The notes beneath the pieces were generated by a model. The model worked only from the letters and a program-made list of their open reading frames with translations. It had not been told where the DNA came from and did not search any database. From Elusimicrobia bacterium GWA2_66_18 (lineage in GTDB: Bacteria > Elusimicrobiota > Elusimicrobia > UBA1565 > UBA9628), in contig MGTX01000032.1 of assembly GCA_001799675.1 (NCBI GenBank), positions 42,405 through 106,404 of the forward strand: 64,000 bases of DNA. The letters are read 5' to 3'. Position 1 is the stretch's first letter. Every line of letters begins with the position of its first letter. Of the stretch, positions 14,450-57,162 are shown piece after piece. The position numbers and the translations under genes were made by a program.

Positions 14450-14877
14450 CGCTTCTCGCCGTCGACCGGGCGACGAAGCTCTGGGCGATGCGCGACCTGC
14501 GCGTGCGCGGACCGATCCCGGTCCTCCCCTTCTTCGAGTTCTCCTACGTGGAGAACACGGGCGCCGCCTTCGGCATGGGCCGGGGCGCCAACGGCGCCTT
14601 TATCGCGATTTCCGTCGTCATGATCGCGGTCCTCGTCAGGATCCTGCGCCGCTGGCCCAAGGACGACTTTTGTCTTCAGGCGGGAGGGACCTTGGTCTTG
14701 GCCGGGGCGCTGGGAAATCTTTACGACCGGCTCTTCTACGGCTACGTCGTCGACTTCCTCTTCCTGCACCACTGGCCGGTCTTCAACGCCGCCGACTCCT
14801 GCATCACCGTGGGGGCCGTCCTGCTCGCCTGGGGGCTGAAGGACCCCGAGAAAAAGGCGCCGATCAATCCTTCGTGA
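14419..14877 (+). CDS. lspA: Signal peptidase II
   Basis: NTGAAFG, GALGNLYDR, VVDFL, WPVFNAAD; canonical position after ileS. Confidence 0.96.
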   Translation: MRSLRPATVLALLAVDRATKLWAMRDLRVRGPIPVLPFFEFSYVENTGAAFGMGRGANGAFIAISVVMIAVLVRILRRWPKDDFCLQAGGTLVLAGALGNLYDRLFYGYVVDFLFLHHWPVFNAADSCITVGAVLLAWGLKDPEKKAPINPS

Positions 14878-16435
14878 GCTTGCTGACGCCCCAGAACAGA
14901 GCGAAGCCGATCGCGGCTCCGACGAGGATGCCGACGGGCCCGAAGAAAGTTCCGACCAGCGCCCCGGGGATGGCTCCGACCGCGCCGGTCTTGACGGCCA
15001 GCCATTTGTTCGGGTCTTTCTTCTCGTCCTTCTTGCCGCCCTCGGTATCGGAACCGGGCTTGGTGGGGTCGGGGGGGATGCTTGCCTTGAGGTTCGTCTT
15101 CGATTGGCTTCGGGGCTTGTCGGCCAGGAAATCAGCGCAGGCTTGGCGCAGCTTGTCGACCTCGGTCTTGGCGATCCGAGGCAGAGGGGCGGCGGCGACG
15201 GTGTTGTTATGAGGCAGATTGCCGGAAAAGATTCCAGTTGCGGAATCATCACTGTCGGCTGCCTTTTCAACCTGTGTTTTGGCGGGCGCGACCACTTGGT
15301 AGCCGCCGAGGAAGCCGTCGTTGGAGGCGCTGCCCAGGTCGTCGCAAAACTTGCCCTTCTGTGCCGGGGTAAGAGCCGTGAACTCAGCCACGGTCGTCGG
15401 GGTCTTTTCCAGCGCTCTGGCGCGGGCCTTTTGGCGGTATTCGGCGATGACGGCCGCGATCCCCGCGGGGTCCTTCTTCTTCCGGGCTTGTTTGAGGTTT
15501 AGTTTGTAGGTCTTCCGTTCGCCCTTCATCAGATTATTTTCCTCGCTCTTATCGAGTTCCTTGAGATCTAGGGTCACGACGGCATTGGATGAAGAGTCGG
15601 GCTTCTTGGCTGCGGCCGCCGCGATCTTGTCGCGCGAGGCCTTATAGGCGTCGGCGAGCTTGTCCGGATCGCCGGCGGCGGCGAGGACGTCCTTAATATA
15701 CTGGGAGGCTTCATCGGGGGGGAGCTTGGCAAGTTCGTCGGACGTCAACGCGCCCGTTCCCGCGGGAGCGTTCGGCGTCGGGACCAGGCCGCGGTACTTG
15801 GCGGCGGCGCGGCGCAGAATGGGATTGGACCGGCGCCCTTTGATTTCGGCCTGGTAGTTTTCTTTTTGCGTTTTGCCGGCGGGGTCCTTAATATTGTCGA
15901 GGGCGGCCAGCTCGTCTTCGCTCAGGGCCTTATCGGCCGCCGGCCGGTCTTCGGCGACCTGCGTCGGCGGAGGGACGATCATGATGTAGCCCTCCGGCAG
16001 CCGCGATTCGACGTCATGGATGTCGAAGGCGAGCGAGGCGCCGGGGATGACGGCCCGGTGAGGCGTTTGGCTGACATCGAGTTTATACATCGACAAGAAC
16101 GTCGTGTAATAAGCTTTCGCGGACTTCACAGGAAGGTCTTCTGGATCTTTGCGGTAGTCGTAGTATTCGGTTTTTTCACGCTGGAGGACGTAGAGATTGA
16201 CCGGTCGTGTCGACTTCTTGTTCCATGCGCACTCGTCCCTGCGACACCAGAGCGGATGCGCCTTGCCGGTCTCATCCTCAAAGGAGATTGCGCGCCAGGA
16301 CCATGTGGATTCTCCAACCGTTTCCCATGTTGGGAGGCTCGTTGGGCGCGATTTCGCGGTCGCCTTATGATCCGCCGGCAGGGCGGGGACGGCGAGGGCG
16401 ACGGCGAGGGCGAGAAGGGAGAGGGGGTGTCTCAT
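14864..16435 (-). CDS. Secreted hypothetical protein with helical repeats and C-terminal glycine-zipper hairpin
   Basis: Signal peptide; C-terminal GAVGAIPGALVGTFFGPVGILVGAAIG. Confidence 0.75.
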   Translation of the reverse strand: MRHPLSLLALAVALAVPALPADHKATAKSRPTSLPTWETVGESTWSWRAISFEDETGKAHPLWCRRDECAWNKKSTRPVNLYVLQREKTEYYDYRKDPEDLPVKSAKAYYTTFLSMYKLDVSQTPHRAVIPGASLAFDIHDVESRLPEGYIMIVPPPTQVAEDRPAADKALSEDELAALDNIKDPAGKTQKENYQAEIKGRRSNPILRRAAAKYRGLVPTPNAPAGTGALTSDELAKLPPDEASQYIKDVLAAAGDPDKLADAYKASRDKIAAAAAKKPDSSSNAVVTLDLKELDKSEENNLMKGERKTYKLNLKQARKKKDPAGIAAVIAEYRQKARARALEKTPTTVAEFTALTPAQKGKFCDDLGSASNDGFLGGYQVVAPAKTQVEKAADSDDSATGIFSGNLPHNNTVAAAPLPRIAKTEVDKLRQACADFLADKPRSQSKTNLKASIPPDPTKPGSDTEGGKKDEKKDPNKWLAVKTGAVGAIPGALVGTFFGPVGILVGAAIGFALFWGVSKLTKD

Positions 16436-16696: not shown

Positions 16697-17558
16697 GAGC
16701 CTGTTGCACAAACCGTCTGAGGCCATAAAAATCTGTCGGCACGGGGTCGTTCACGCATAGACCGGGGCGAAAGTCGGCGTCCCGAGAGAAAAACGCTCCG
16801 AAATCCGCCGTATCTTCGCCTTCCCGCTCCTCCAAAGCTTGAGCAAGTTGTGCGTCGTGCACAGCAGCGACCATTCGCTGTCGGCTGCCTTCACGCCTCG
16901 CCGTGAGAACCCGTCGCATCCCCGGACGTCTTGTCCTCCGCTGCGTCCCGGGCCTTCGCCTCCTCGAATCAGTGATCCACGTCCTTCTTCAAATGCTCGT
17001 AGTCTCGGTTCGCCGAGAGAGCCGCGTTCGCCTTCATCTTCGTTCCGTCAAGCGAGATCGCTCCCGCCTTCACAGGGTCCCCTTCCCGGCACAACCGCAA
17101 GACCTCCAGAAACAGCCCCTTCAACGCGCCGTCGTGCTCCGCACGGAACCGGCAGATCGTCGCGTGGTCCGGACGCCCATTACCAGCCACCACCCGAAAG
17201 GCCACGTCCACCTCGCACGCCTTCTCGATCTCCCGGGAAGACTGCTCCCCAAGGCAGTACGAGTACAACAGCAGCGCTGTCATCATCTTCGGCTCGTACG
17301 CCGCGCGCCCTCAGCCGCCGCTACGATACGCCAAGTAAAACTTCTTCAGGCCCAACGACTCCACGGCATCAACGATGAACCATGCCAGATGGTTCGCGGG
17401 CAGCCACTCGCGCATGTTCGGCGGCAGCAAGTACGCCGTCTCGCGGTCCACGTTCTTGAAGTTGTAGCCCATTCTCTCGCTTGCTCCGTACGCGCACGCG
17501 CACACGCGCGCGCGTACGAGGATTTTCTCAAATCAGGAGGGGTTTGTGCGACAGGCTC
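16697..17558 (-). mobile_element. Internally deleted IS1182-family element (862 bp)
   Basis: 18-bp terminal inverted repeats GAGCCTGT(T/C)GCACAAACC at 16697..16714 and 17541..17558 enclosing transposase fragments. Confidence 0.88.
16751..17472 (-). pseudogene. IS1182-family transposase pseudogene
   Basis: LLPPNMREWLPANHLA, YEPKMM..LLYSY..G..SSR.IE, PDHATICRFR, DGTKMKANA, then a jump to the C-terminal FSRRG...EWSLLCTTHNLLKL; two in-frame TGA, a large deletion and a frameshift. Confidence 0.9.
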
Positions 17559-17771
17559 TTAAATAACGACTCAAAAAATACCCGCACACGGGGGGTGCTG
17601 AATTCCAGCCCGACGAAGCTGCCCAGCTCGCGGTCTGCGATGGTCAGGTGCGGACCCTCGTTGTGCGAAGCGCGATAGGCCTCGACAAGATCGGCGCCTG
17701 CCGCGTCGAATGGGCGCGCCGTTTTGATTCCTCGCGGCAACTCCGTCGCCAGGAACCCGGCAACGATCCAA

Positions 17772-17906
17772 CTACCAGTTGCTGATGCCTGATTGGTCTT
17801 CCTGGAAGACCGTCCTCGCACAACCTGCCCGGTCAAAAACCGTATTGTGGAAACTGAAGATGATCAGGCTATACATGCATCCGGCCAACGCGAATATCTT
17901 TTTCAT
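17772..17906 (-). CDS. 44-aa ORF divergent from ycaO (candidate peptide or 5' part of a broken gene)
   Basis: MKKIFALAGCMYSLIIFSFHNTVFDRAGCARTVFQEDQSGISNW preceded by a GGGGGTG RBS-like run. Confidence 0.4.
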   Translation of the reverse strand: MKKIFALAGCMYSLIIFSFHNTVFDRAGCARTVFQEDQSGISNW

Positions 17907-17970
17907 AGCACCCCCAGCGCAATCCAGTCCAACCGTTGTATATTGTACACTGGATTCGCAATCAATTTCC

Positions 17971-18903
17971 GTGTCAACAACCGAACTCCTGCGGTTCATT
18001 AGCCCCCGAAGCGGCCCCATAGTGGCCATCACCTCGGCGCCCTATCCCAGTTCTTGGCGCAGGAGACTCTGGTATTCCACCGCGAAGCTGCATCCGCGAT
18101 GGCAGGACCCTACCCGCAAGTGCGGCGTACTTCTGTTCGGCGGCGGCGGCTGGTCAACTGACAAGGAAGAAAGCCAGTGCAAAGCCGTAACGGAGGCCAT
18201 TGAAAGGTGGGCTTTCCGGTATTACGCGATCTCCCATCCCGAGGAGATCGGCTTTGAATCGGATCCCACCACCAACGGATTCGCCGCCCTCCCTGCTGCA
18301 ATGGGGTCTCGTCCACTGATACGACATGCGTACCATGAGGCCCTTGAGCGGTGGGCGTTGAATCGCTTCTGGGACGAAGGGAATATCTCGTTTAACGAGG
18401 TCACGCCGCCCCAGGACGCCGTCAGCCTCTTTGGGCAATTCAAGGGACGCGTAAGCTGTTATGTGGCCGCGCTCCAGGACCAGTCGCCGAAGGCTCTGCG
18501 CGCGGGAACCATCTCCTTCTGTCTCGCCATTTTCACCAACGATGCCGGCGGGGTCGTTCCAGGATCGGCGTGCGGGGATGACTTGGCGGCGACGACGATG
18601 CGCGCCTCGCTGGAAGCGTACATCCACGCTCGCGCCGCCGCGAATCTGAAGGGGAAGGCGCCCCTGCGGCAACTCGACATAACGGAGCAGCGCCTGCTGC
18701 ATTTCTCAACGAGCGCCCTGGCGGGAGCCTCCGTCAAGGAGCGTCTGCTCTTATCGCGGACATCCGTACCTCGTCCGACACCCCCGATCATGTTCTCAAA
18801 ACACCTGCCCGGGCCCTGGGAACCCGAGATCCGGGTGCACCGAGTGCTCGTCGCGGACTCCAAGCCCATCACATGTGGCGGGATCGACCGCTTCATTATT
18901 TGA
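17971..18903 (+). CDS. Small stand-alone YcaO-like protein
   Basis: GGGGWS..KAVTEAIERW and TTNGFAA...AYHEALERWA match the two YcaO ExxER ATP/Mg motifs; start uncertain (GTG 17971; frame open from 17779). Confidence 0.75.
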   Translation: MSTTELLRFISPRSGPIVAITSAPYPSSWRRRLWYSTAKLHPRWQDPTRKCGVLLFGGGGWSTDKEESQCKAVTEAIERWAFRYYAISHPEEIGFESDPTTNGFAALPAAMGSRPLIRHAYHEALERWALNRFWDEGNISFNEVTPPQDAVSLFGQFKGRVSCYVAALQDQSPKALRAGTISFCLAIFTNDAGGVVPGSACGDDLAATTMRASLEAYIHARAAANLKGKAPLRQLDITEQRLLHFSTSALAGASVKERLLLSRTSVPRPTPPIMFSKHLPGPWEPEIRVHRVLVADSKPITCGGIDRFII

Positions 18904-18913
18904 TCGCCGGCCA

Positions 18914-20464
18914 ATGAGAAGAATCTTCGTCTTGACGCTGGTTTTGGCGTTATTTTTTGGCGGGCCAGCAAACTCCAAAGGAGAATCAGAAATGCAGCAG
19001 CCGCCCCTGCGGTATTGGTTTTGGTGGCCGATCCGAACCCTTGACACCTTCGAGGCGGACACGCCGCCGGTCATGCAGGTCGCGCGCAACATCTACGCGC
19101 CTCTTGTCTCCGAATTTCTCGATGGCAAGGCGCAGGGGTTGGTCGCGGAAGACTGGCGAGTCGATCAAACCGGGAAGAACTGGACGTTCCGAATACGGAA
19201 AGGACTTGTCTTTGACGACGGAGATCCCATCACGCCGAAGGTGGTCTTGGCGAATTTCCGACGCATCCTCTGGCTGACCCGCGGCGAAAAACTCGCCCTT
19301 AACGCGCTCCTCCCCGAGATCGCGGGATGGAAGGATTTCAAAGCGCCTCTCCAGAGCCTCCATGCCGATCAAGACAGCCTTTATTTCCATTTCGATCGAC
19401 GGCCCGTGGACCTGTTCGAGGCCATCGGCCAACCGATATACGGCATCGCCAATCCGAAGTGCTTCGATCATCAGGGGCTTTGGAAGGACCCCTTCTGTCA
19501 TTCCGCTTCGGGGCAATACCGGATCATCGAACGTTCCCCGAACAGGGTCGTTCTGCGGTCCCGGAACATATTTCCGGCCGCCGTCAACGCGCCGGAAACC
19601 GTGGAAATCAATGCCCCGGTGGAACGCGACGATAACGTCGTCCAGGCGCTTCGGGACGGTCGTGGAGACCTGACCGTCGAGCACAGTTTCGCCATCAGTC
19701 GCCGGTCTCTCCGGGAGATCGGTGATTCCGGTTTGAAGATGGTGGCTGAGCCTCCCGTGCGCATGCACTTCATGCATCTCAACGCGTCTCGGAGACCATT
19801 CAAGAGCAAAGCCCTGAGACAGTCGCTGCGCGACTCATTCCTGCGCGCGCTGAAATCCGACGCGCGCTATGCGTCGTCCGGGATCGAAGTGGACCCATCG
19901 TTCATCCCGAAGGGGGGCGTCGGGTACGCCCACCTCGATGTGCCGCGGCCCGGACAGGTTGCAAAAGCATCGGGGGAGCCGGTCGACGTCCTATTTTTTC
20001 CTCTGGCTGCGGAGCGGGAAACCCAGGAGGCGATCGAGGACAGCGTGGTGTCCTCTCTCAAAGCGCACGGCCTTGTGCCGAGGGTCAAACGATATCCCGA
20101 CCGGTTCGAGCCCTTCAACCGCATGAGACGAGGGGACTTCGACGTCATCATCCGTGGGACGGGCATCCTCGTCAACAATCCCTACGCCGACCTGCGGATG
20201 ATGTTCATGAGCAAAATCGGCGCCATGATCCCGGACCCTTCAGGCGCTGTTGCGGGGCTGATTGAAAAAGCCGAGCGGGAACAAGACTCATCCAAGAGGT
20301 CGCGCCTCGTGGAAGAGATCAACCGCTCGGTTTTCGAGGAAGCGGCAATCATCACCTTCGCGCATTCGAACCTGCTTTACATCCATAACCGCGGCGTGGA
20401 CCTCTCCCATCTCAACATCTTCGCCGATCCCATCGAGTTTAGAGCCGTCAGTTGGAACCCCTAG
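18914..20464 (+). CDS. Family 5 (OppA/DppA-like) solute-binding protein
   Basis: Signal peptide; GLVAEDW...WTFRIRKGLVFDDGDPIT..V, SGQYRI, LNASRRPF...LRQ. Confidence 0.88.
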   Translation: MRRIFVLTLVLALFFGGPANSKGESEMQQPPLRYWFWWPIRTLDTFEADTPPVMQVARNIYAPLVSEFLDGKAQGLVAEDWRVDQTGKNWTFRIRKGLVFDDGDPITPKVVLANFRRILWLTRGEKLALNALLPEIAGWKDFKAPLQSLHADQDSLYFHFDRRPVDLFEAIGQPIYGIANPKCFDHQGLWKDPFCHSASGQYRIIERSPNRVVLRSRNIFPAAVNAPETVEINAPVERDDNVVQALRDGRGDLTVEHSFAISRRSLREIGDSGLKMVAEPPVRMHFMHLNASRRPFKSKALRQSLRDSFLRALKSDARYASSGIEVDPSFIPKGGVGYAHLDVPRPGQVAKASGEPVDVLFFPLAAERETQEAIEDSVVSSLKAHGLVPRVKRYPDRFEPFNRMRRGDFDVIIRGTGILVNNPYADLRMMFMSKIGAMIPDPSGAVAGLIEKAEREQDSSKRSRLVEEINRSVFEEAAIITFAHSNLLYIHNRGVDLSHLNIFADPIEFRAVSWNP

Positions 20465-20468
20465 ACCA

Positions 20469-22538
20469 ATGCGTCTCGCCCCGCTGAAGGACCCCAGGCT
20501 TCTCCTCTCATGGCTGCTGGGCGTCTGTCTCATCGCGGCGACGTTCTACGGCGCGACTTCCCGGCTGTGGACTGAGGCAGAGAGCGCCCGGGCCGCTTCG
20601 ACGGAAAAGACCGTCGTTGCCGCCTTGGCTGGAGACTTGGCCGAAGGCAACCTGTTCAAGCTCGGCGCGACCGTTTTGAGGCTGAAGCGTGAGGGGCAAC
20701 TGAGATCGGCGAGAATATTTGCCATCCGCGATGCGGCCGCAAGCGTCCTATTCCAAACCCCGGAAGCGAACGGCCTCGATGAAGCCCTTTCCCGGACGTT
20801 CCGTTGCAAAGAACGGAAGCGGGTCGCGCGGCGCTCCGGCGGAGGCGTGGACGTGTGGACGATCCTGCCCGCCAGAATCTCCGGTTTTGATTGCGTCGCA
20901 CTGTATTTCAGCTCCGACCTTCCACCCGAACTGGATCTGTTTAAGAGCCGCCTGCTGGCCTCATCCGGAGGACTCATCCTTGTCCTCATCGTGCTTTTTT
21001 CATGGCTGGCGCTGTCCTGGCATCACCGGATATTGAACTTGGAGCTGGCCGCCTCTCGCATGAAAGTCGAAAAGGAATCCGCGATCGAGCAGATCGCCGC
21101 CCAGGTTGCCCACGATATCCGCTCTCCCTTGGCGGCCCTGGAAATCGTTTCCGGGGCTATCGCCCAGCTTCCGGAAGACAAGCGCATCCTGATTCGCGCC
21201 GCCGTCGGCCGCATCCGCGACATCGCCAACAATCTCTTGGACCGTCGGCGCGCCCGAGTTGCCGGGGCCGGGAGCCCATCCGCCGCTTCCGTCGCGCCCG
21301 AGGCGGCATCCCCGCGACTCCTCTCCAGCCTGATCGACCCCGTCGTCAGCGAGAAGCGCCTCCAGTTTAGGTCCCATTCCCGCGTCGACATCGAGCCCAG
21401 GCTCGACGCCTCATCCTACGGGCTTTTTGCCGCGGTGCAGCCCGTGGAGTTCAAGCGTCTGCTCTCCAACCTCGTCAACAACGCGGTCGAGGCCTTCGGC
21501 GAAGGCGCGGGCGCGGTGAGCGTGAGCCTGAGCGCCCGCGAAGGCCGCGCCCTGGTCAGCGTGCAGGACAACGGCAAGGGTATCCCACCCGAGGTGCTGG
21601 CCAAACTGGGGCGCCGAGGGGAGACCCACGGCAAGGTCGGGGGCTCGGGTCTTGGACTGTACCATGCCCGCAGCAGTGCCGAGTCCTGGGGCGGGAGCCT
21701 GGAGCTTTCCTCCGAGGTCGGCAAGGGCACGACGGCGATTTTGGCCCTGCCCTTGGCTCCGGCGCCGGGGTGGTTCGTGCCGGAGCTCTTGCTTGCGCCA
21801 GGCAAGGCCGTGGTGATCCTCGATGACGACGAGAGCATACACCAAGTCTGGCAGGGGAGGCTTGACGCACTGAGGGCGGGCGCGCAAGGAGTCCCCGTCG
21901 TCCACGTTTCGACGCCGGATGAGATACGGGACTGGGTCAAGAACGAGGCGGCCGCGGCGCGAGAGGCGCTCTATCTTTTCGATTACGAGTTGTTGGGACA
22001 TCGGGAGACGGGCCTTGCTTTAGCCGAGGAACTGGGGCTCGGGGAGCGTGTGGTGCTGGTGACGAGCCGCTACGAGGAGTCGGAGGTGCTGGAGGGCTGT
22101 CGGAGGCTCAGAGCCCGCATGATTCCCAAAGGCCTGGCTGGTTTCGTTCCCATCCGAGTACAAGCGGCGAAGGCCCCGCCTGCGGCCGCGCCGGACGAGA
22201 AGGGCGCTAGGCTCGATGCGGTGCTCATCGACGATGATGCGCTGGTGCGGATGAACTGGAGCATGGCAGCCAAACGGGAGGGGAAGTCCTTCAAGACGTA
22301 CGCGGACGCGGCGTCCTTTTTAGCCGAACTGGACGCGGGCGCCATCTCCACGGACACTCCCGTCTACATCGACTCCAACCTCGCCGACGGGGTTAAAGGC
22401 GAGGTCGTGGCCCTTGAGATCAACCGCCGGGGTTTTAAGAGAATTCGACTGGCGACCGGCCACGACCCCTCCGCGTTCGCCCCGATGCCTCATATCCTCG
22501 AAGTCATCGGCAAAGAGCCCCCGTGGGGCGCAACTTGA
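20469..22538 (+). CDS. Membrane sensor histidine kinase with two C-terminal receiver-like domains
   Basis: 2 TMs; H-box AHDIRSPL; NLVNNA, DNGKGI, GSGLGL; ILDDD..YLFDYEL..PK and LIDDD..YIDSNL..GK receiver-like modules. Confidence 0.92.
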   Translation: MRLAPLKDPRLLLSWLLGVCLIAATFYGATSRLWTEAESARAASTEKTVVAALAGDLAEGNLFKLGATVLRLKREGQLRSARIFAIRDAAASVLFQTPEANGLDEALSRTFRCKERKRVARRSGGGVDVWTILPARISGFDCVALYFSSDLPPELDLFKSRLLASSGGLILVLIVLFSWLALSWHHRILNLELAASRMKVEKESAIEQIAAQVAHDIRSPLAALEIVSGAIAQLPEDKRILIRAAVGRIRDIANNLLDRRRARVAGAGSPSAASVAPEAASPRLLSSLIDPVVSEKRLQFRSHSRVDIEPRLDASSYGLFAAVQPVEFKRLLSNLVNNAVEAFGEGAGAVSVSLSAREGRALVSVQDNGKGIPPEVLAKLGRRGETHGKVGGSGLGLYHARSSAESWGGSLELSSEVGKGTTAILALPLAPAPGWFVPELLLAPGKAVVILDDDESIHQVWQGRLDALRAGAQGVPVVHVSTPDEIRDWVKNEAAAAREALYLFDYELLGHRETGLALAEELGLGERVVLVTSRYEESEVLEGCRRLRARMIPKGLAGFVPIRVQAAKAPPAAAPDEKGARLDAVLIDDDALVRMNWSMAAKREGKSFKTYADAASFLAELDAGAISTDTPVYIDSNLADGVKGEVVALEINRRGFKRIRLATGHDPSAFAPMPHILEVIGKEPPWGAT

Positions 22539-22590: not shown

Positions 22591-22656
22591 TTAGGGCTTT
22601 CGACCTATATTCGTCTTGACCGGCAGGAGGCGCGCGCCGCGCAGGAAGGCCTCCCA
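22591..22656. repeat. 66-bp direct repeat, right copy (island boundary)
   Basis: 64/66 identical to 16494..16559; encodes the last 21 codons and stop of CDS 22591..23178. Confidence 0.95.
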
Positions 22657-23178
22657 GGCGATCTCCCCGAGCCTCTCGGGGTCCGCGACGGGGCTTTCCC
22701 GCTGGTGGGAGAGCACGATGAACCGCCCGTCTTTGAAGGGCGCAAGGACGCAGAACGACTCGGCGCCCATCCGCGGCCTCGCCGAGGAGGACTCATGCGG
22801 ACCGCCTTGCGCGAGAGGGAAACGGCGGCGGTACAGCGCCAAGGGCCGTCCGGCGACCGGCGCCGCGCCCCGTTTTTGCGCCTCGCGCCCCATCGTGGTC
22901 GCGGCCGGTCCGGCGAGGAAATCCGCGGGGGTCTTGTAAAAGGAACCCTTCGCCCCGAAGACCCGGACGACCAGGCGGTCTGCGCCCCGCTCGAAGGCCA
23001 CGACGAGGTCGGCGCCCGCCGCGTTGGAATAGGTCGTCCGGCGCCAGCCCGGCGGGGTCTCGACCTGGATGAGGCCGGCGACGATTTCTGAGGGGGGGGA
23101 GGTCTTCATGGGGGGCTCCTTGGCCGCTCCGGCCAGGGCCGCAGGCGCGAGGAGGCAGGCCAGGCCTAGCGTTCTCAT
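22591..23178 (-). CDS. Hypothetical exported protein
   Basis: Signal peptide MRTLGLACLLAPAALAGA; TGATG overlap with the upstream gene. Confidence 0.75.
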   Translation of the reverse strand: MRTLGLACLLAPAALAGAAKEPPMKTSPPSEIVAGLIQVETPPGWRRTTYSNAAGADLVVAFERGADRLVVRVFGAKGSFYKTPADFLAGPAATTMGREAQKRGAAPVAGRPLALYRRRFPLAQGGPHESSSARPRMGAESFCVLAPFKDGRFIVLSHQRESPVADPERLGEIAWEAFLRGARLLPVKTNIGRKP

Positions 23179-24476
23179 CAGCGGCCCCAGTGGCGAGGGT
23201 TGTCTCGCAGGTCGTCCTGGTAGAGCGTCTCCAGGCCGTCTTCATCGATCTGATCGGGCGGGGGCGGAGTCCGGGTCTCGGGCTTGCGGCCCTGCGTCTG
23301 CATCCCGAGGCGCGCGCGGTAGCGCGAGATACGCTCCTCGCAGGACCGGAGGTACTCGGAGCGCGAGGATTGGGAGAGTTGCCACAGCTGCTCGAGGCCG
23401 GGCTCGGTGTCGAGGAAATCGATGCGATTTTGGAGAGAATCCTCGACCTTGTGGGAATACGTCATCAGTCGGGGGAGTTCCCGCTCCAGGAAGTTCTCGA
23501 TGTCTTCGCTGATCGAGGCGAATCGGCGGCGTTCCATGCCGTGGCCGGCCGTGAGATGTTCGATGATGATGCGCCACTTGCGCATCTTGACGGCTTCGTC
23601 GTCGAGCCGCTCGCGGCGGCGGCGCGTCTCTTCTAGGCGGGACCTCAGCACCGGGAGCGGATCGCCCATCTCGGCGGGGCTCAAGGACTGGGCGTAATAA
23701 GGGTCGATGAGAGCGCTTCTATCGTGGAAGCGCTCGGGATCCTGCAGGTAGCTCCACATGTCGCCGTCGCTTAAAGGGGCGCCGAGTTCGCTGAGGACCA
23801 GCCAGCCGATCAGGCGGGCGTTGGCCTCGTCGCCGCGGTAGAGGTTGAGCATCCACGCGGGGAAGTTGTCGCGGGCGGCCCTCTGGTGTTCGAGGGCGTG
23901 TCCGAACATCTCATGGGCGATGGTCTCCGCCATATTTTGGGCGGCGAAGGGCGGGTCGGCGTCGAGGAAAAGGCTGTTGAGCGCGACGACGGACCGCCCA
24001 TCGAGGGACCGCCCATTGGACCGGGTCTCGCCCAGCACCCCGGACACCACCCTGACGCCGTTGACCGTGATAAGCGAGCCGTCGAGCTTGTCGAAGCGGA
24101 TGTCGCAGGAGGCTCCCTCGTCCACGAAATCCTCCGCGGCTTGCCGGCCGGTCCTGGTCCGGAGGATGTCGCGCAGGGCCTCTTGGAGCGCGGCGGCGGC
24201 CCGGGGGTCCGAGTTCCGGTAGAGCGTGACTCGGGAGAGGAGAGCGCGGAGCAACCGAGGCTCCTCCGTCACGGCGGATGCCGGGCGCGCGGATTCGGTT
24301 TGGCCGGGCGACGTCGGGACTTCCACGCCCGGCGGGCGTCGCAGTCCGCCGTCGAAATCGAGAGCGTCGACGGCGCCGGGAGTCAGGAGGTCCGCCTCCA
24401 CCGAGGTCGCCGCCGCCGGGCCCGCGGCCAACAGCGGGAGGATGACGCAAACGGCGTGTCTCAAGCTCCGGGGCAT
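23178..24476 (-). CDS. Secreted protein with zincin-like AHEMFGH motif
   Basis: Signal peptide MPRSLRHAVCVILPLLAAGPAAA; HExxxH followed by DEANA; coiled C-terminus. Confidence 0.75.
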   Translation of the reverse strand: MPRSLRHAVCVILPLLAAGPAAATSVEADLLTPGAVDALDFDGGLRRPPGVEVPTSPGQTESARPASAVTEEPRLLRALLSRVTLYRNSDPRAAAALQEALRDILRTRTGRQAAEDFVDEGASCDIRFDKLDGSLITVNGVRVVSGVLGETRSNGRSLDGRSVVALNSLFLDADPPFAAQNMAETIAHEMFGHALEHQRAARDNFPAWMLNLYRGDEANARLIGWLVLSELGAPLSDGDMWSYLQDPERFHDRSALIDPYYAQSLSPAEMGDPLPVLRSRLEETRRRRERLDDEAVKMRKWRIIIEHLTAGHGMERRRFASISEDIENFLERELPRLMTYSHKVEDSLQNRIDFLDTEPGLEQLWQLSQSSRSEYLRSCEERISRYRARLGMQTQGRKPETRTPPPPDQIDEDGLETLYQDDLRDNPRHWGR

Positions 24477-24675
24477 GGCAATCCTGGGATTATAGGGAGC
24501 GGCGGCGTCTTGCGCCAAGGGTCTTAATGCCTACGTCGCCGCCAGTTTTGCTCTAATTCGGCAACCGCTGTTCCAGCCTCGTTTTTATCGCGGGTCAGGG
24601 ACAGCGGTTATTATTTTGGTCCCGTCGTCTTAGGGAAAGGCGGGATTCGAACTTTCCTCGCCCGCCGGTCCTCTA

Positions 24676-26154
24676 CTACTCATCGGCCGGCAGGCCGTAG
24701 AGCAGGTGAGGATTAATCGTCATGATGTGGTAGACTCCGTTGAGGTTCGCCATCGTGTCGCGGATGAACTCTGACATCACAGCCGGATTTCGACCTTCTT
24801 CGCGATAGTCCTTAACCTCACGGGCGAGCGCGAGTCGGACCGACTCCTCGGGCGACTTATAGATGGCGATCCCGCCGAATACGTTCCAGTGGCGGCTCTT
24901 GTCAGGTCCGTCCTCCTTGTTGCCCGGCAGGAGAAAGTTCTCCAGCGCAATGGAGGATGGGAGCTGAGTGCGAGGAATGCTCTTTACCCATGCGAACGGG
25001 ATGCGGACGGCCTCATCAAGCAGGCCGACGGCGGCGCGCTTGTCGCCGGGCTTGATGCGCATCGCCTCGCGGTAAAGCAGGACCATCGGGAGATTGTGGT
25101 TCTCTAGAGGCATGTCGGCATGCTTCGGAGTCGTGCGCGCCACCGCCCGCAGGTAGCGCCGGTCGTGCTGCGCAAAAAGCGAGAGCTTCATAAAATCCTG
25201 GCGCGTTGTCGTGGACTTGAAGTATTGCCACACAGCACGGTCCGAATAGTTCCGGAGCTTAAGCATGTCGCGCGGTGGGGCCAACGTCTCAAGATTCATC
25301 TCTAGTCCGAGGTCACGACGAAGCAGGTCCGACATCTTCCGGAAGACCGCGCTGGTCGGCTGCCTCCCTGCGGAATACTCCCGGTAGAGCGGGGACTCCT
25401 GAAGTTCCCGCAGGTGGTCGCGGAAGATGAGAGTCCCCGCCACGAAATGTGTTTGCCCTTTCACCGTCAGAGTTTCGGCGTCCTCGCTCAACTCAATGAG
25501 CATCATGAGGAGCGGGAAGAGGTCGTGTTCGGACCATAGCGCCTCACAACGCTTAAGTTTGCGCAGCACGTATTCACGCTCGACCGGCAGCAAATTCGCG
25601 CGACGTAGGCCGTAGGCGATGGAGAAACGCAGTCCTTCGTCATAGACCTCGGCCTGCAGCCGATCCCGATAGAGAGTGCGCGGCTCGCGCGCCATCGTGC
25701 GCAAGAATGGCAACGGCGATCTCACGAGCGCAGGATGGTCGAGGATCATGGTGGGGCGCTGCGTGTATTCCGAGGAGGGAAGGTACAAGAAGAATTCCCT
25801 GGGATAGGGGAACGAAAGTCTGGTCACGATGGCATCCGTACGGGCTTTGTAAGGGTCGCCGACCGCGTACAGCCTTTCCAGAATGCGGATATCCTCATCG
25901 TCGATAAAGCCGTTGCGATTGGCGTCCACCTTCAGAGCCTCGAGGCGGGGCCGTGCATAGGGATTGGCAAGGAAGCGGTGAAGCAGGACGACGTCCTTTT
26001 CGTCCCAGGCATGGTCGCCGTTGAGGTCCCCCAGCATGATGAGTTCGGAGTGCATGCCGATGCGGTGGACAGGGAGCGTGTAGTACGTCGTGGCGGTAGC
26101 CGAAACGGCAATCAGGATTCCGTAAAGGAATATTCTCAATTTCTTGCCATTCAT
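24676..26154 (-). CDS. Exported protein with dockerin-like/EF-hand pair and unknown C-terminal domain
   Basis: GDLNGDHAWDEKDVVLL and DANRNGFIDDEDIRIL Ca-binding loops after an N-terminal TM. Confidence 0.75.
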   Translation of the reverse strand: MNGKKLRIFLYGILIAVSATATTYYTLPVHRIGMHSELIMLGDLNGDHAWDEKDVVLLHRFLANPYARPRLEALKVDANRNGFIDDEDIRILERLYAVGDPYKARTDAIVTRLSFPYPREFFLYLPSSEYTQRPTMILDHPALVRSPLPFLRTMAREPRTLYRDRLQAEVYDEGLRFSIAYGLRRANLLPVEREYVLRKLKRCEALWSEHDLFPLLMMLIELSEDAETLTVKGQTHFVAGTLIFRDHLRELQESPLYREYSAGRQPTSAVFRKMSDLLRRDLGLEMNLETLAPPRDMLKLRNYSDRAVWQYFKSTTTRQDFMKLSLFAQHDRRYLRAVARTTPKHADMPLENHNLPMVLLYREAMRIKPGDKRAAVGLLDEAVRIPFAWVKSIPRTQLPSSIALENFLLPGNKEDGPDKSRHWNVFGGIAIYKSPEESVRLALAREVKDYREEGRNPAVMSEFIRDTMANLNGVYHIMTINPHLLYGLPADE

Positions 26155-27362
26155 ATCTTTGCCTTGACCAGGAAGTCTTCAAGGCTGATCCCCTCAACAT
26201 TACTTGCCGCAACCTCGCGCGTGATCATAACGAGCCTCGCTTGTTTATTGCGATGGCTGAAGGCCTTCAGCCCATCAGGCAAACCGGCTTCTTTGCCGGA
26301 TTTAACCTCAATGGCAACAAGTTCTTGTCCGCGCTTAAGAATAAAGTCGACCTCATCCTGACGATCGCGCCAGTAGAAGACCTCCCCACCCTCCCGCTCT
26401 GCCATCGCCACCAATGCGGCGCCAACAGCGTTCTCGACAAGGCGGCCCTTCCAGGCCGGATCGACCCGCCCGTTTTTGATTATGGCTGGAGTCAGGGCGG
26501 TCACTAAGCTGTTGTCTCTGAGAACGATCTTAGGAATGGATCCCCTCTGCCGGATGCGGCTGCCGCTCCACCTTTGCAGCGGCGCCATCAGGTAGGCAGC
26601 GGAGAGAAGGTGGAAATAATGCGCTATCGTGACCGTGTTGCCGGCATCGCTCAGCTGGCCGAGCATCTTCTGGTAGCTCATGATTTCAGCCGGATGAGCG
26701 CAGGCCATGCCGAAGGCCTGTCGAAGAAGAGCCGGTTTTTGAACGGGCGACATCAAAAGAACATCCTTGCCGATAACCGTTTCGATGAGAGAATCCCTTA
26801 TAAATCTCGACCACCGCACGGGGTCCTTCCTGAGTTCAAGCGCCCCAGGATATCCCCCGAAAACGAAGAACTCATCGAGCGTCAAGCCGAAGCAATCCCG
26901 ACACTCCAAAAATGACCACTGCATATGCCGATGAAGTTCGAAGCGGCCCGCAAGGCTTTCCGTCAAGCCGCGCTGAACGAGCAACGCCGACGAGCCTAGG
27001 AGGACGACTCGCAAGCGAGTCCGCTTCCGGCGATCTTCATCAACAAGGACCTTGACCGCCTCGCTCCAGTGCGGAATTTTCTGGACCTCATCGAGGATCA
27101 GCAGCGTATCCTCACCAGCCTTCAAAGGAAGTTCGCGGGCCTTTTTCCAGTGATCGGAAATCCATTCAGAGCCCGGCGTATGGGGCTGATCTGCGGTTTC
27201 GTAGATTTTCTGCCCCTGCCAACGCTCCTGGGCCTGAAGCGCGATAGTCGTTTTTCCAACCTGCCGGGGGCCCGTTACGACCTGAAGAAGCCTTGGCTCA
27301 CCGGTAAGCGCGCTCCAAAGAGCATCGAACAGGTGCTGACGGACGTATGTCATTTCAGCCAT
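26151..27362 (-). CDS. AAA_14-type ATPase with C-terminal DUF4143 (nuclease-like) domain
   Basis: Walker A GPRQVGKT, Walker B LILDEVQ, LGSS, ESLAGRF, GGYP, C-terminal EVDFIL..IEVKSG. Confidence 0.92.
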   Translation of the reverse strand: MAEMTYVRQHLFDALWSALTGEPRLLQVVTGPRQVGKTTIALQAQERWQGQKIYETADQPHTPGSEWISDHWKKARELPLKAGEDTLLILDEVQKIPHWSEAVKVLVDEDRRKRTRLRVVLLGSSALLVQRGLTESLAGRFELHRHMQWSFLECRDCFGLTLDEFFVFGGYPGALELRKDPVRWSRFIRDSLIETVIGKDVLLMSPVQKPALLRQAFGMACAHPAEIMSYQKMLGQLSDAGNTVTIAHYFHLLSAAYLMAPLQRWSGSRIRQRGSIPKIVLRDNSLVTALTPAIIKNGRVDPAWKGRLVENAVGAALVAMAEREGGEVFYWRDRQDEVDFILKRGQELVAIEVKSGKEAGLPDGLKAFSHRNKQARLVMITREVAASNVEGISLEDFLVKAKI

Positions 27363-27368
27363 ATGCCC

Positions 27369-27397
27369 ATTGTAGCTCCACAAAATCCAATAGTCAA
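27369..27397 (-). promoter_or_regulatory. Sigma70-type promoter of the ATPase (leaderless)
   Basis: TTGACT-17 nt-TACAAT, then 6 nt to the ATG at 27362. Confidence 0.75.
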
Positions 27398-55407: not shown

Positions 55408-57162
55408 ATGAAAAGAATCCTGACGCTCAGCCTATTGTTCCTGATCTCCGCGGCCGTTCACGCCCAGCAGACGAGCACGGCGACCTACGTTCATCTGACC
55501 AGCAGGCGCTGGCATACCTTCGACCCGGCCAACGCCTTCGACGTCGTCAGCCACATCGTCACGGGCAACGTCTACGAGAGCCTGCTCGCCTTCAAGAGCG
55601 TCTCCCAAACGGACGCTTTCAAGCCGTTCTTGGCCAGCCGCGTACCCTCCATCGAGAACGGTCTGATCTCAAAAGACCACCTCAGATACTCCTTGCCGAT
55701 CCGCCGGAACGTCCGCTTCCATGACGGCTCCTTGCTGACGGCCGAGGACGTGCGCTACTCCTTTTTGCGCTTCATGCTGCTTGACTCCGATGGCGGTCCC
55801 GCCGCCCTGCTCCTGCGCCCCCTGTTGGGCGTCTCCAGCACGCGCAACGCCTCCGGCAAGAGATTGATCTCCTTCCAGGACGCGGCGCGCGCCGTGACCG
55901 TCAAGGGCGGACAGGTCGTCTTCACGCTCAAGAAGCCGGACAGCTCTTTCCTGAAGCTCCTGGCTTCCCTGCCCATCGTCACGTCCATGGCTTGGGCCGC
56001 CGCGCAAAAAGATTGGGATGGCTCTGAGAACGCCTGGATATCCTTCAACGCCCGGCCGGCCGATCAGACCGGTCTCCACGCGAAAATGAACGGCACCGGG
56101 CCCTTTCGCCTCGAGCGCGTAGAGGACGACGAACTCGTGCTGGCGCGTCATGACGGGTACTGGCGCAGCCCCAGCGCGCTTGAGCGTGTCCGCTTCAAAG
56201 CGGTGCCCAACGGCGGTCTGCGGCTGTTCATGCTCCAGGCCGGCGACGCCGATTCGAGCTATCTGGAAGATTCCTTCCGGCCCTACGCCAAAGCCGCCAA
56301 GGGCCTGCGCGTCATCGACGGCCGGCCCGATACCGATTTGGGCGAGATGGTCTTTTTTAATTTTAAAGCGGCCGCGGCGGGCAATGAGATGCTGGGCAGC
56401 GGCCGGCTCGACGGAGCCGGCATCCCGCCCGATTTTTTCAGCGACATCGATGTGCGCCGGGGCTTCGCGTGGGCCTTCGACTATGAGCAGTTCGCGCGCG
56501 CCGCTTACGGCTCCCTCGCCCGGCGCGTCCGGGGCCCGTTCCCATCCAGCATGGCGCCGGGCGCCGATGGAGCGCCTTACGCCAAGGATCTCCAAAAAGC
56601 GCGCGATGCCTTCCAGAATGCGTTCGGCGGAGAGGTCTGGAAGAAGGGCTTCGTCCTGCCCGTGAGTTACAGCAGCAGCAACCTGACGCGAGAGCTGGCC
56701 GCAGAGGCTCTGCGCAGCGGGCTCAGGGAGGTCAACCCCCGCTTTAGGGTGGAACTCCATCCCCTGCAGAGTCAGGAGTACTACGCCGAGTTGGAAAGCC
56801 GCAAGCTCCCTCTTTTCATCGGCGGCTACTATTCCGATTTCCCCGACCCGCACTCCTACGCGTTCGGGCTGCTCCAAAGCCAGAGCTACTTCCCGAAATA
56901 CCAGAGCTTCTTCGACCCGGAGATCGATGTCCTCATCGAGAAGGCCGCGGCCGAGGCGGACCCTGCCGCTCGCCGGGCTCTCTACCAGGGCCTGAGCGTC
57001 CTGGCGGAGAAGACCCTGCCTCATCTTTACACCTACGCCGCCCCGCCCCTGCGCGTATGCGGAGATTGGGTGTCCGGTTACGATTCCGCCGACAACACCA
57101 ACAACCTCCACGCCAACAACTTCCCCTACTTCTACTCGTACTCGAAGCGACCGCGGCCCTAA
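55408..57162 (+). CDS. Family 5 peptide/nickel solute-binding protein
   Basis: TFDPA, NVYESL, RFHDGS.LTAEDV.YSF.R, NGTGPF, D.DVRRGFAWAFD. Confidence 0.92.
   Translation: MKRILTLSLLFLISAAVHAQQTSTATYVHLTSRRWHTFDPANAFDVVSHIVTGNVYESLLAFKSVSQTDAFKPFLASRVPSIENGLISKDHLRYSLPIRRNVRFHDGSLLTAEDVRYSFLRFMLLDSDGGPAALLLRPLLGVSSTRNASGKRLISFQDAARAVTVKGGQVVFTLKKPDSSFLKLLASLPIVTSMAWAAAQKDWDGSENAWISFNARPADQTGLHAKMNGTGPFRLERVEDDELVLARHDGYWRSPSALERVRFKAVPNGGLRLFMLQAGDADSSYLEDSFRPYAKAAKGLRVIDGRPDTDLGEMVFFNFKAAAAGNEMLGSGRLDGAGIPPDFFSDIDVRRGFAWAFDYEQFARAAYGSLARRVRGPFPSSMAPGADGAPYAKDLQKARDAFQNAFGGEVWKKGFVLPVSYSSSNLTRELAAEALRSGLREVNPRFRVELHPLQSQEYYAELESRKLPLFIGGYYSDFPDPHSYAFGLLQSQSYFPKYQSFFDPEIDVLIEKAAAEADPAARRALYQGLSVLAEKTLPHLYTYAAPPLRVCGDWVSGYDSADNTNNLHANNFPYFYSYSKRPRP

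Follow-up and report, generated by a model that had tools for sequence, protein, structure and literature searches.

The question raised by this locus is what a YcaO-like protein, an orphan solute-binding protein (SBP) and a sensor histidine kinase do together in one run of genes. The locus lies in a 64,000-nt stretch of DNA (the window) from Elusimicrobia bacterium GWA2_66_18 (assembly GCA_001799675.1, contig MGTX01000032.1, positions 42,405 to 106,404 of the forward strand). An earlier reading of the letters without database searches (the sequence-only reading) had described three co-oriented genes and proposed that they make, capture and transduce a signal. The coordinates agree with that description: the open reading frame (ORF) list and translations place the YcaO, SBP and kinase genes on the + strand, together filling 17971-22538, with a 10-nt gap between the YcaO and SBP genes (stop at 18903, ATG at 18914) and a 4-nt gap between the SBP and kinase genes (stop at 20464, ATG at 20469). 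These short gaps suggest a single transcript. It was found that a fourth, small gene on the opposite strand co-occurs with these three and encodes a peptide of conserved motif architecture, that the enzyme belongs to the YcaO superfamily, and that the SBP and kinase are paired. The proposal that the four genes form one unit, in which the YcaO protein would modify a Sec-exported peptide that is then sensed by the SBP and kinase, seems to us evenly balanced between acceptance and doubt.

The small gene (17772..17906, - strand, 44 aa; identified by ORF, translation and an alignment of 19 peptides) was found from a conserved stretch upstream of YcaO genes that, in an alignment of the upstream DNA, was meaningful only on the opposite strand. 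The peptide has a Lys-rich basic start and a hydrophobic segment of 15-16 residues (residues 4-18 in a hydrophobicity scan), followed by Thr22-x-Phe24-Asp25-Arg-x-Gly28, a variable stretch, and a C-terminal Asn43-Trp44; a purine-rich putative ribosome-binding site is present just 5' of the ORF. In the 19-peptide alignment T22, F24, G28 and N43 were invariant, D25 was present in at least 90%, and the rest was variable. The gene occurs on either strand relative to the YcaO gene, and in two copies in loci L002 and L016, and this speaks for a genuine gene and against a DNA element. In the 2.79-Mb genome the pattern of signal plus motif was confined to two ORFs, both beside YcaO genes of the lineage to which the window's enzyme belongs (type A), and as a chance control a looser small-ORF pattern was found in 15 of 1000 random 1300-nt segments of the genome. 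No NCBIfam family was matched by the 10 peptides tested.

The arrangement recurs in related loci. Genome and metagenome scans gave 32 loci and phylum scans gave more; 36 rows were examined, from which 13 duplicates were set aside by a crude filter (a shared 60-residue stretch), leaving 23 unique type-A loci. Four loci from the phylum scan duplicate Elusimicrobia loci and share their class or order with the window's genome, and L012, L013 and L039 are the second cassette of the window's own genome, counted once, so that the other loci include one same-genome paralogue. A small ORF with the motif was present in 23 of 23 unique loci, as counted with the looser pattern of the chance control, which had been widened after inspection of L006, L028 and L045. 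The SBP gene was directly downstream in 17 of the 19 type-A loci having at least 800 nt of downstream sequence (the exceptions, L007 and L027, are described below), and the kinase gene followed the SBP gene in all 13 loci having at least 1700 nt. These loci are in metagenome-assembled genomes (MAGs) of Elusimicrobia and Bdellovibrionales, with a 26%-identical relative in a deltaproteobacterial MAG, which has the YcaO-SBP-kinase triplet too. Because the arrangement is seen again in unrelated lineages, it appears to be more than chance, and the expectation of the sequence-only reading that a YcaO-SBP-kinase triplet and a conserved small ORF would recur was borne out. A small precursor gene beside the enzyme gene, encoding a conserved putative recognition part and a variable part, is also what is expected of a cluster for a ribosomally made, post-translationally modified peptide (RiPP), and this was found in all 23 loci. 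In L010 (8-598) and L023 (282-1232), the peptide and YcaO genes have immediately upstream of them the 3' end of a further kinase gene from this family, so the cassettes seem to be tandem in those genomes.

A second lineage of YcaO proteins (type B, 25-40% identical to type A and present in 9 of 401 phylum genomes) has the same parts in a different order. The type-B cassette of the window's genome (C32:6445-1696) reads peptide-SBP-YcaO-kinase-hydrolase. In 8 other genomes the SBP gene was upstream of the type-B YcaO gene in 8 of 8 loci and the kinase gene downstream in 7 of 8, the eighth locus ending at the YcaO gene, and a signal-bearing peptide with Thr-x-Phe-Gln was encoded upstream of the SBP gene in the 7 of 7 regions fetched as well as in the genome's own copy. 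With the second type-A cassette on contig C5, the window's genome has three YcaO cassettes and, in addition, one in which a stand-alone DUF4135 protein stands in place of YcaO, followed by an SBP and a paralogous kinase (C5:41392-36439; locus L036 5440-10393, minus strand). DUF4135 is the kinase/dehydratase region of LanM, and all 22 database clusters found are annotated PF13575; no match was obtained with this query in the 400 other phylum genomes. The DUF4135 cassette is preceded by an ORF of 25-32 aa that has no signal peptide, starts Ser-Asp-Phe-Gln and has Thr at +19, +20 and +22. Each of the four paralogous cassettes pairs a divergent SBP with a kinase.

The YcaO gene (17971..18903, + strand) encodes a compact stand-alone protein of 310 aa, assigned by family HMM matches and ExxER motifs. 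The frame is open from 17779 and the gene caller's version is 342 aa (P0004), and translation from the GTG at 17971 gives an N-terminus that agrees residue for residue with 28 homologues. As the sequence-only reading had noted, both ExxER motifs are present, and they were invariant in 29 aligned sequences (E75/E78/R79 and E123/E126/R127), together with Pro-Gly-Ser-Ala-Cys-Gly around Cys201. The C-terminus has no Pro-rich tail and instead ends with an invariant Arg307-Phe308. Profile PF02624 was matched at E<=0.1 by 29 of 29 aligned family members (best 7.8e-11), and in single scans 9 of 10 members were above the cut-off of 25.7 bits, covering profile positions of about 2-28 and 102-268. The proteins of about 310 aa related to this YcaO make up a tight family of 44 protein clusters; an exhaustive profile search gave 751, 542 and 38 representatives at E<=1e-3, 1e-10 and 1e-30, respectively, nearly all of 280-320 aa, and longer, fused forms were not found, which is weak evidence by the limits of that search. 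The nearest clusters in the ESM Atlas, with PF02624 in 20-47% of members, are located in Verrucomicrobiota and Bdellovibrionota. No NCBIfam family was matched by the window's protein. We place it in the YcaO superfamily as a divergent branch of compact, stand-alone proteins with a putative YcaO fold.

As for partners, the flanking ORFs (14864-16435, 16903-17562, 22591-23178 and 23178-24518) had no Pfam or NCBIfam match, in line with the statement of the sequence-only reading that no E1/ThiF or TfuA partner is present at the locus. TfuA had 0 matches in the window's genome (94.7% complete), in a genome-wide search that did not extend to ThiF-like genes. ORF clustering across the related loci gave no recurrent extra gene of an immunity, exporter or further tailoring kind.

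The spacing within the peptides points to a possible target of the enzyme. In type-A peptides an Asn is at +21 from the motif Thr in 18 of 23 cases, and in the remaining 5 it falls within +19 to +23. In the peptides of L007 and L027 a Cys is at +21 in both, and in type-B peptides (n = 8) the residue at +21 is Ser in 4, Thr in 2, Asn in 1 and Ala in 1. In the most distant locus, L008, an Asn-Trp pair is present and an Asp lies at -18 from it, the same distance as in type A. YcaO cyclodehydratases turn Cys, Ser and Thr into azolines. Because the residue at +21 is Asn, Cys or Ser/Thr according to peptide family, it is a putative YcaO target, and the view that the Thr-x-Phe motif is a recognition element and +21 the modified position is suggestive only. 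If so, Asn43 of the window's peptide would be an unusual nucleophile, or the driver of a different reaction.

The SBP gene (18914..20464, + strand) encodes a family-5 protein of 516 aa with a signal-like hydrophobic segment at residues 4-18. It matched SBP_bac_5 (PF00496) with 81.7 bits and E 7e-23 (cut-off 32.4) over profile positions 3-363 of 368, which upholds its description in the sequence-only reading as an OppA/DppA-like protein without a nearby permease: there was no BPD_transp_1 permease match on the window's contig (C32), and ORF clustering showed no permease or ATPase gene next to the SBP gene in related loci. Full-length orthologues of 41-64% identity are encoded directly downstream of the YcaO gene in other loci. 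A canonical SBP_bac_5 gene (193 bits) was also observed within the window at 55663-56883 (+), and no permease was found on the same contig.

The kinase gene (20469..22538, + strand, 689 aa) was recognised by HATPase_c, an H-box and two transmembrane (TM) segments. The hydrophobic segments are at residues 11-29 and 162-180. The periplasmic domain between them, about 132 aa long, has a conserved pair of Cys and matched no known family in the Pfam scan. The H-box His215 is present and conserved, HisKA scored 18.9 bits (cut-off 26.9), and HATPase_c was matched with E 1e-22 and 80.7 bits over residues 326-430. The sequence-only reading had given this kinase two TM segments and two receiver-like domains; the former and the kinase core were confirmed, and the latter are seen as motif patterns. 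A receiver-like pattern of Asp-Asp-Asp / Asp / Thr-or-Ser / Lys is conserved twice in 8 paralogues and orthologues. Module 1 (about residues 447-560; 21807..22148, + strand) has Asp452-454, Asp505, Thr/Ser532-533 and Lys554, and is delimited by alignments and by the NCBIfam hybrid-kinase model NF041832, which aligns to residue 554; module 2 (about residues 583-687; 22215..22529, + strand), delimited by alignments only, has Asp588-590, Asp635, Thr663 and Lys682.

Six kinases in the genome share this core and receiver-like tail, with 52-77% identity. Two kinases outside the cassettes, at C6:101499-103202 and C14:34290-36116, are 69-77% identical in the core and double receiver-like tail, differ in their N-terminal parts and lack an SBP; the genes around them are metabolic (MeaB, CMD, carboxyl transferase and cupin). 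In the kinase of the second type-A cassette (C5:10379-12187), a run of X from N in module 2 makes the 3' end unreadable. In two Elusimicrobia loci, genes for sigma-54-dependent NtrC-type response regulators flank the cassette (L003 6014-7366 and 12610-13956; L004 12715-14256). These regulators are candidate outputs of the cassette, and there are none near the cassette of the window.

Taken together, these results lead us to propose the following sequence of events. The product of the divergent small gene would be a prepeptide of 44 aa whose N-terminus is of the Sec type. Hydrophobic N-termini and topology put the peptide, the SBP and the sensor domain of the kinase outside the cytoplasm, and the YcaO protein, having no hydrophobic segment, is presumably cytoplasmic; modification must then come before Sec export. 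The compact YcaO protein would recognise Thr-x-Phe-Asp-(Lys/Arg)-x-Gly and, with ATP, activate an amide of the backbone some 21 residues downstream of it, at Asn43, which is invariant (Cys or Ser/Thr in the sister families). The modified peptide would be exported and its hydrophobic N-terminus cut off, and the orphan family-5 SBP would capture it, either in the periplasm or once it had been released and had entered again. The loaded SBP is predicted to dock on the periplasmic domain of the kinase and alter its autophosphorylation, with phosphate passing through the receiver-like tails to an unlinked Hpt domain or response regulator. Where one genome has a number of paralogous cassettes, each with a peptide of its own, these would make up separate signalling channels. 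The synthase-receptor-kinase scheme of the sequence-only reading is partly supported by the synteny and the conserved peptide; it had missed the peptide gene and the Sec-type N-terminus, with which the signal may stay in the periplasm.

Several observations weigh against this proposal. The first concerns the enzyme. Scanned alone against PF02624, the check put forward in the sequence-only reading, the window's protein reached 16.4 bits (E 0.006), below the cut-off that most of the members scanned singly exceed, with only profile positions 2-26 matched. A search of PDB sequences by single sequence and by profile gave no YcaO match. The hhalign comparison of the family with E. coli YcaO had a probability of only 4.8%; this low-probability alignment puts the second ExxER motif on Glu-x-x-Glu-Arg at residues 199-203 of E. 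coli YcaO, and a local hmmsearch gave one weak stretch around that motif. Both results are too weak for active-site mapping. Azoline-forming YcaO cyclodehydratases have a Pro-rich C-terminal motif, PxPxP. Since the Pro-rich C-terminus and an E1/ThiF-like or TfuA partner are lacking here, the protein may catalyse another reaction or have no activity.

The second concerns the putative target. The +21 pattern rests on some four peptide families that are independent of each other, and its offset was picked after type A had been seen. We know of no precedent for Asn as a YcaO nucleophile, and none was found in the literature searched (subscription journals not covered). Moreover, an enzyme in the cytoplasm whose substrate leaves through Sec has to compete with export. 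The third concerns the fate of the signal. The kinase tail had no Pfam Response_reg match even at E<=1, and no receiver was found in the PDB profile search. Hpt domains were found in 5 places in the genome, none of them near any cassette, and the Pfam scan found neither an Hpt domain nor a regulator encoded in the cassette of the window. A peptide of about 25 residues does not easily leave the periplasm of a two-membrane cell, and true cell-to-cell signalling is therefore doubtful.

A bolder version of the proposal can be imagined, in which the YcaO protein would use the side-chain amide of the Asn at +21 as nucleophile, giving either an amidine within a six-membered ring or a C-terminal cleavage driven by the Asn, and the exported peptide would be a diffusible pheromone read by the SBP and kinase. 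In that case each cell of Elusimicrobia and of the predatory Bdellovibrionales would use several private quorum-sensing channels based on RiPPs, in which a YcaO or a LanM-like enzyme could serve equally well as the synthase. To our knowledge, no YcaO protein uses the Asn side-chain amide in this way, and we regard this version as unlikely.

The two exceptional loci bear on an alternative in which the product is a RiPP whose main job is another one (binding metal in the periplasm, acting on the envelope or serving as an antimicrobial, for example), and the SBP and kinase only monitor it for autoinduction or immunity, as NisK senses nisin. L007 (7862-9675) and L027 (2579-4333) have the peptide and YcaO genes without an SBP or kinase, and the next gene encodes a Biopterin_H-like aromatic amino-acid hydroxylase. 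Their peptides keep Thr-x-Phe/Leu-Asp-Lys/Arg, with a short N-terminus, no long hydrophobic segment, and a Cys-rich C-terminus followed by Trp and Gly residues. They look like a separate, conventional RiPP cluster. The presence of the peptide with YcaO where the sensor is absent shows that the peptide goes with the enzyme and not with the sensor, and that the enzyme-peptide pair can be a biosynthetic unit by itself. This alternative is also favoured by the sparse and patchy distribution of the YcaO genes (type A was found in 8 of the 401 phylum genomes sampled, the window's own included, and type B in a similar number as given above), which is typical of accessory biosynthetic clusters, and by the Sec-exported bufferins, which are periplasmic metal-binders and not signals (10.1101/2024.03.18.585515). 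However, the sensor pair accompanies the enzyme in nearly all type-A loci and in type-B loci (the SBP in all, the kinase in all but the locus that ends at the YcaO gene), no immunity gene, exporter or further tailoring gene recurs, and several paralogous cassettes with divergent peptides occur per genome. We therefore consider a RiPP with another main job possible but somewhat unlikely.

The N-terminus of the peptide is the point at which signalling by an exported peptide has to be weighed against a further alternative, in which the small protein is a membrane-anchored, direct modulator of the kinase, as the small membrane protein MgrB regulates a kinase. The SBP would then sense another external ligand, and YcaO would tune the modulator or have an unrelated substrate. 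Most of the short peptides lack a clean Ala-x-Ala cleavage site and have a conserved Tyr and Gly within the hydrophobic segment, so that a membrane anchor fits as well as a signal peptide, and this too counts against the proposed export; in addition, the two TM helices of the kinase would be available for packing with an anchor. In contrast, the Bdellovibrionales, L008 and C32a peptides have canonical-looking cleavable signals followed by 35-70 residues with the motif region in the C-terminal part, the L007 and L027 peptides have no long hydrophobic segment at all, and the conserved features are outside the membrane segment. A modulator of this kind is in our view quite unlikely.

The last alternative, that the SBP feeds a distant Opp/Dpp permease and that YcaO and the kinase are unrelated neighbours brought together by chance, is very unlikely: the genome has one Opp-like permease pair (C4:70510-72079, the only one) and several other SBP_bac_5 genes likewise have no adjoining permease, but the same gene set occurs in two gene orders with YcaO lineages sharing only about 25% identity, the gaps suggest a single transcript, and the four cassette SBPs are a divergent group, the lowest-scoring of the genome's 10 SBP_bac_5 genes (51-132 bits compared to 171-235), all four beside kinases.

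The reading of the cassette as a peptide-signalling module can be compared with known systems. SBP-dependent kinases such as LuxP-LuxQ, TorT-TorS and CBP-ChiS resemble it in having the SBP gene beside a gene for a two-TM kinase instead of a transporter. In one study (PMC8050422), CBP, a family-5 SBP (SBP_bac_5), stimulates the kinase ChiS, and SBP genes whose products stimulate kinases characteristically adjoin signalling genes. The cassette differs from those systems in that the presumed ligand is a peptide encoded in the same cassette, which also encodes an enzyme to modify it, that the kinase has a periplasmic domain matching no known family, and that SBP-kinase contact is predicted from gene adjacency.

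Among YcaO pathways for RiPPs, both the azoline-forming ones and the stand-alone amidine-forming ones (bottromycin and streptamidine) share with the cassette the two ExxER motifs and an adjoining small precursor gene, and in the sister peptide families the putative target residue is Cys, Ser or Thr. The streptamidine report indicates that stand-alone YcaO proteins can define new RiPP families (PMC8442711). In contrast to these pathways, the enzyme described here is of only 310 aa, without a Pro-rich C-terminus or an E1/ThiF, TfuA or dehydrogenase partner, its precursor has a Sec-type N-terminus and, in the window, an Asn at the putative site, and the cluster encodes a sensor instead of an exporter or protease.

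The bufferins offer a precedent for the order of events. They are RiPPs modified by an MNIO enzyme that have a Sec signal, with the core recognised and modified in the cytoplasm before it reaches the periplasm (10.1101/2024.03.18.585515). They are like the peptides proposed here in the N-terminal Sec-type signal and in modification before export, and they differ in the enzyme (MNIO instead of YcaO), in being copper-binding proteins of 60-100 residues, and in having no SBP-kinase pair.

As a final comparison, the cassette was set beside peptide quorum sensing in Gram-positive bacteria and, on the proposed reading, has in common with it a small gene-encoded peptide that is processed or modified and is sensed by a kinase of the same locus, and peptides that diverge between paralogous or allelic systems. 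In the Gram-positive systems, AgrD/AgrB/AgrC, ComX/ComP and Phr, the kinase binds the peptide directly or Opp imports the peptide. The cassette differs in its two-membrane hosts, in the separate binding protein that is interposed, and in having YcaO as the modifier. Its parts are of known kinds (a YcaO enzyme accompanied by its precursor, a binding protein coupled to a kinase, and a RiPP exported through Sec), and the conserved four-gene combination is undescribed in the literature searched, where no YcaO-SBP-kinase description was found; this accords with the remark of the sequence-only reading that no system of this layout was known to it.

Besides being a candidate for peptide signalling with a dedicated kinase, for which we see the case as finely poised, the cassette carries a real chance of new YcaO chemistry, at which the Asn in place of the Cys, Ser or Thr of the sister families hints. 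Peptide signalling with a dedicated kinase is textbook knowledge in Gram-positive bacteria, poorly documented in two-membrane bacteria, and essentially unknown in Elusimicrobia. YcaO as a signal synthase would, if true, be a new biological role for the family, and a Sec-exported YcaO substrate would, if true, make only the second RiPP class that uses the general secretion pathway. The module is small (four genes, a 44-aa substrate, a motif-to-site ruler, and natural variants), which makes it a directly testable hypothesis, and its compact YcaO protein, with 751 uncharacterised relatives, seems to stand for a large family still to be explored.

The divergent intergenic region between the peptide and YcaO genes is 64 nt long (17907..17970). 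At 17936-17949, 21 nt ahead of the YcaO start codon GTG, it contains a near-palindrome of 14 nt whose core is A/T-rich and -10-like. A promoter consensus scan found nothing in 17907-17970, and the promoter and terminator scan was uninformative overall. In eight related loci (L001, L002, L011, L013, L017, L018, L024 and L029), an A/T-rich, -10-like hexamer was seen by eye 6-7 nt before the YcaO start, and its position suggests a leaderless or near-leaderless YcaO mRNA in those loci. Downstream of the cassette and on the opposite strand is a gene for an AAA_14/DUF4143 ATPase (26151-27383, -), adjoined by an ORF of 492 aa (24676-26154, -) that had only a weak dockerin-like match; neither of these is conserved in the related loci.

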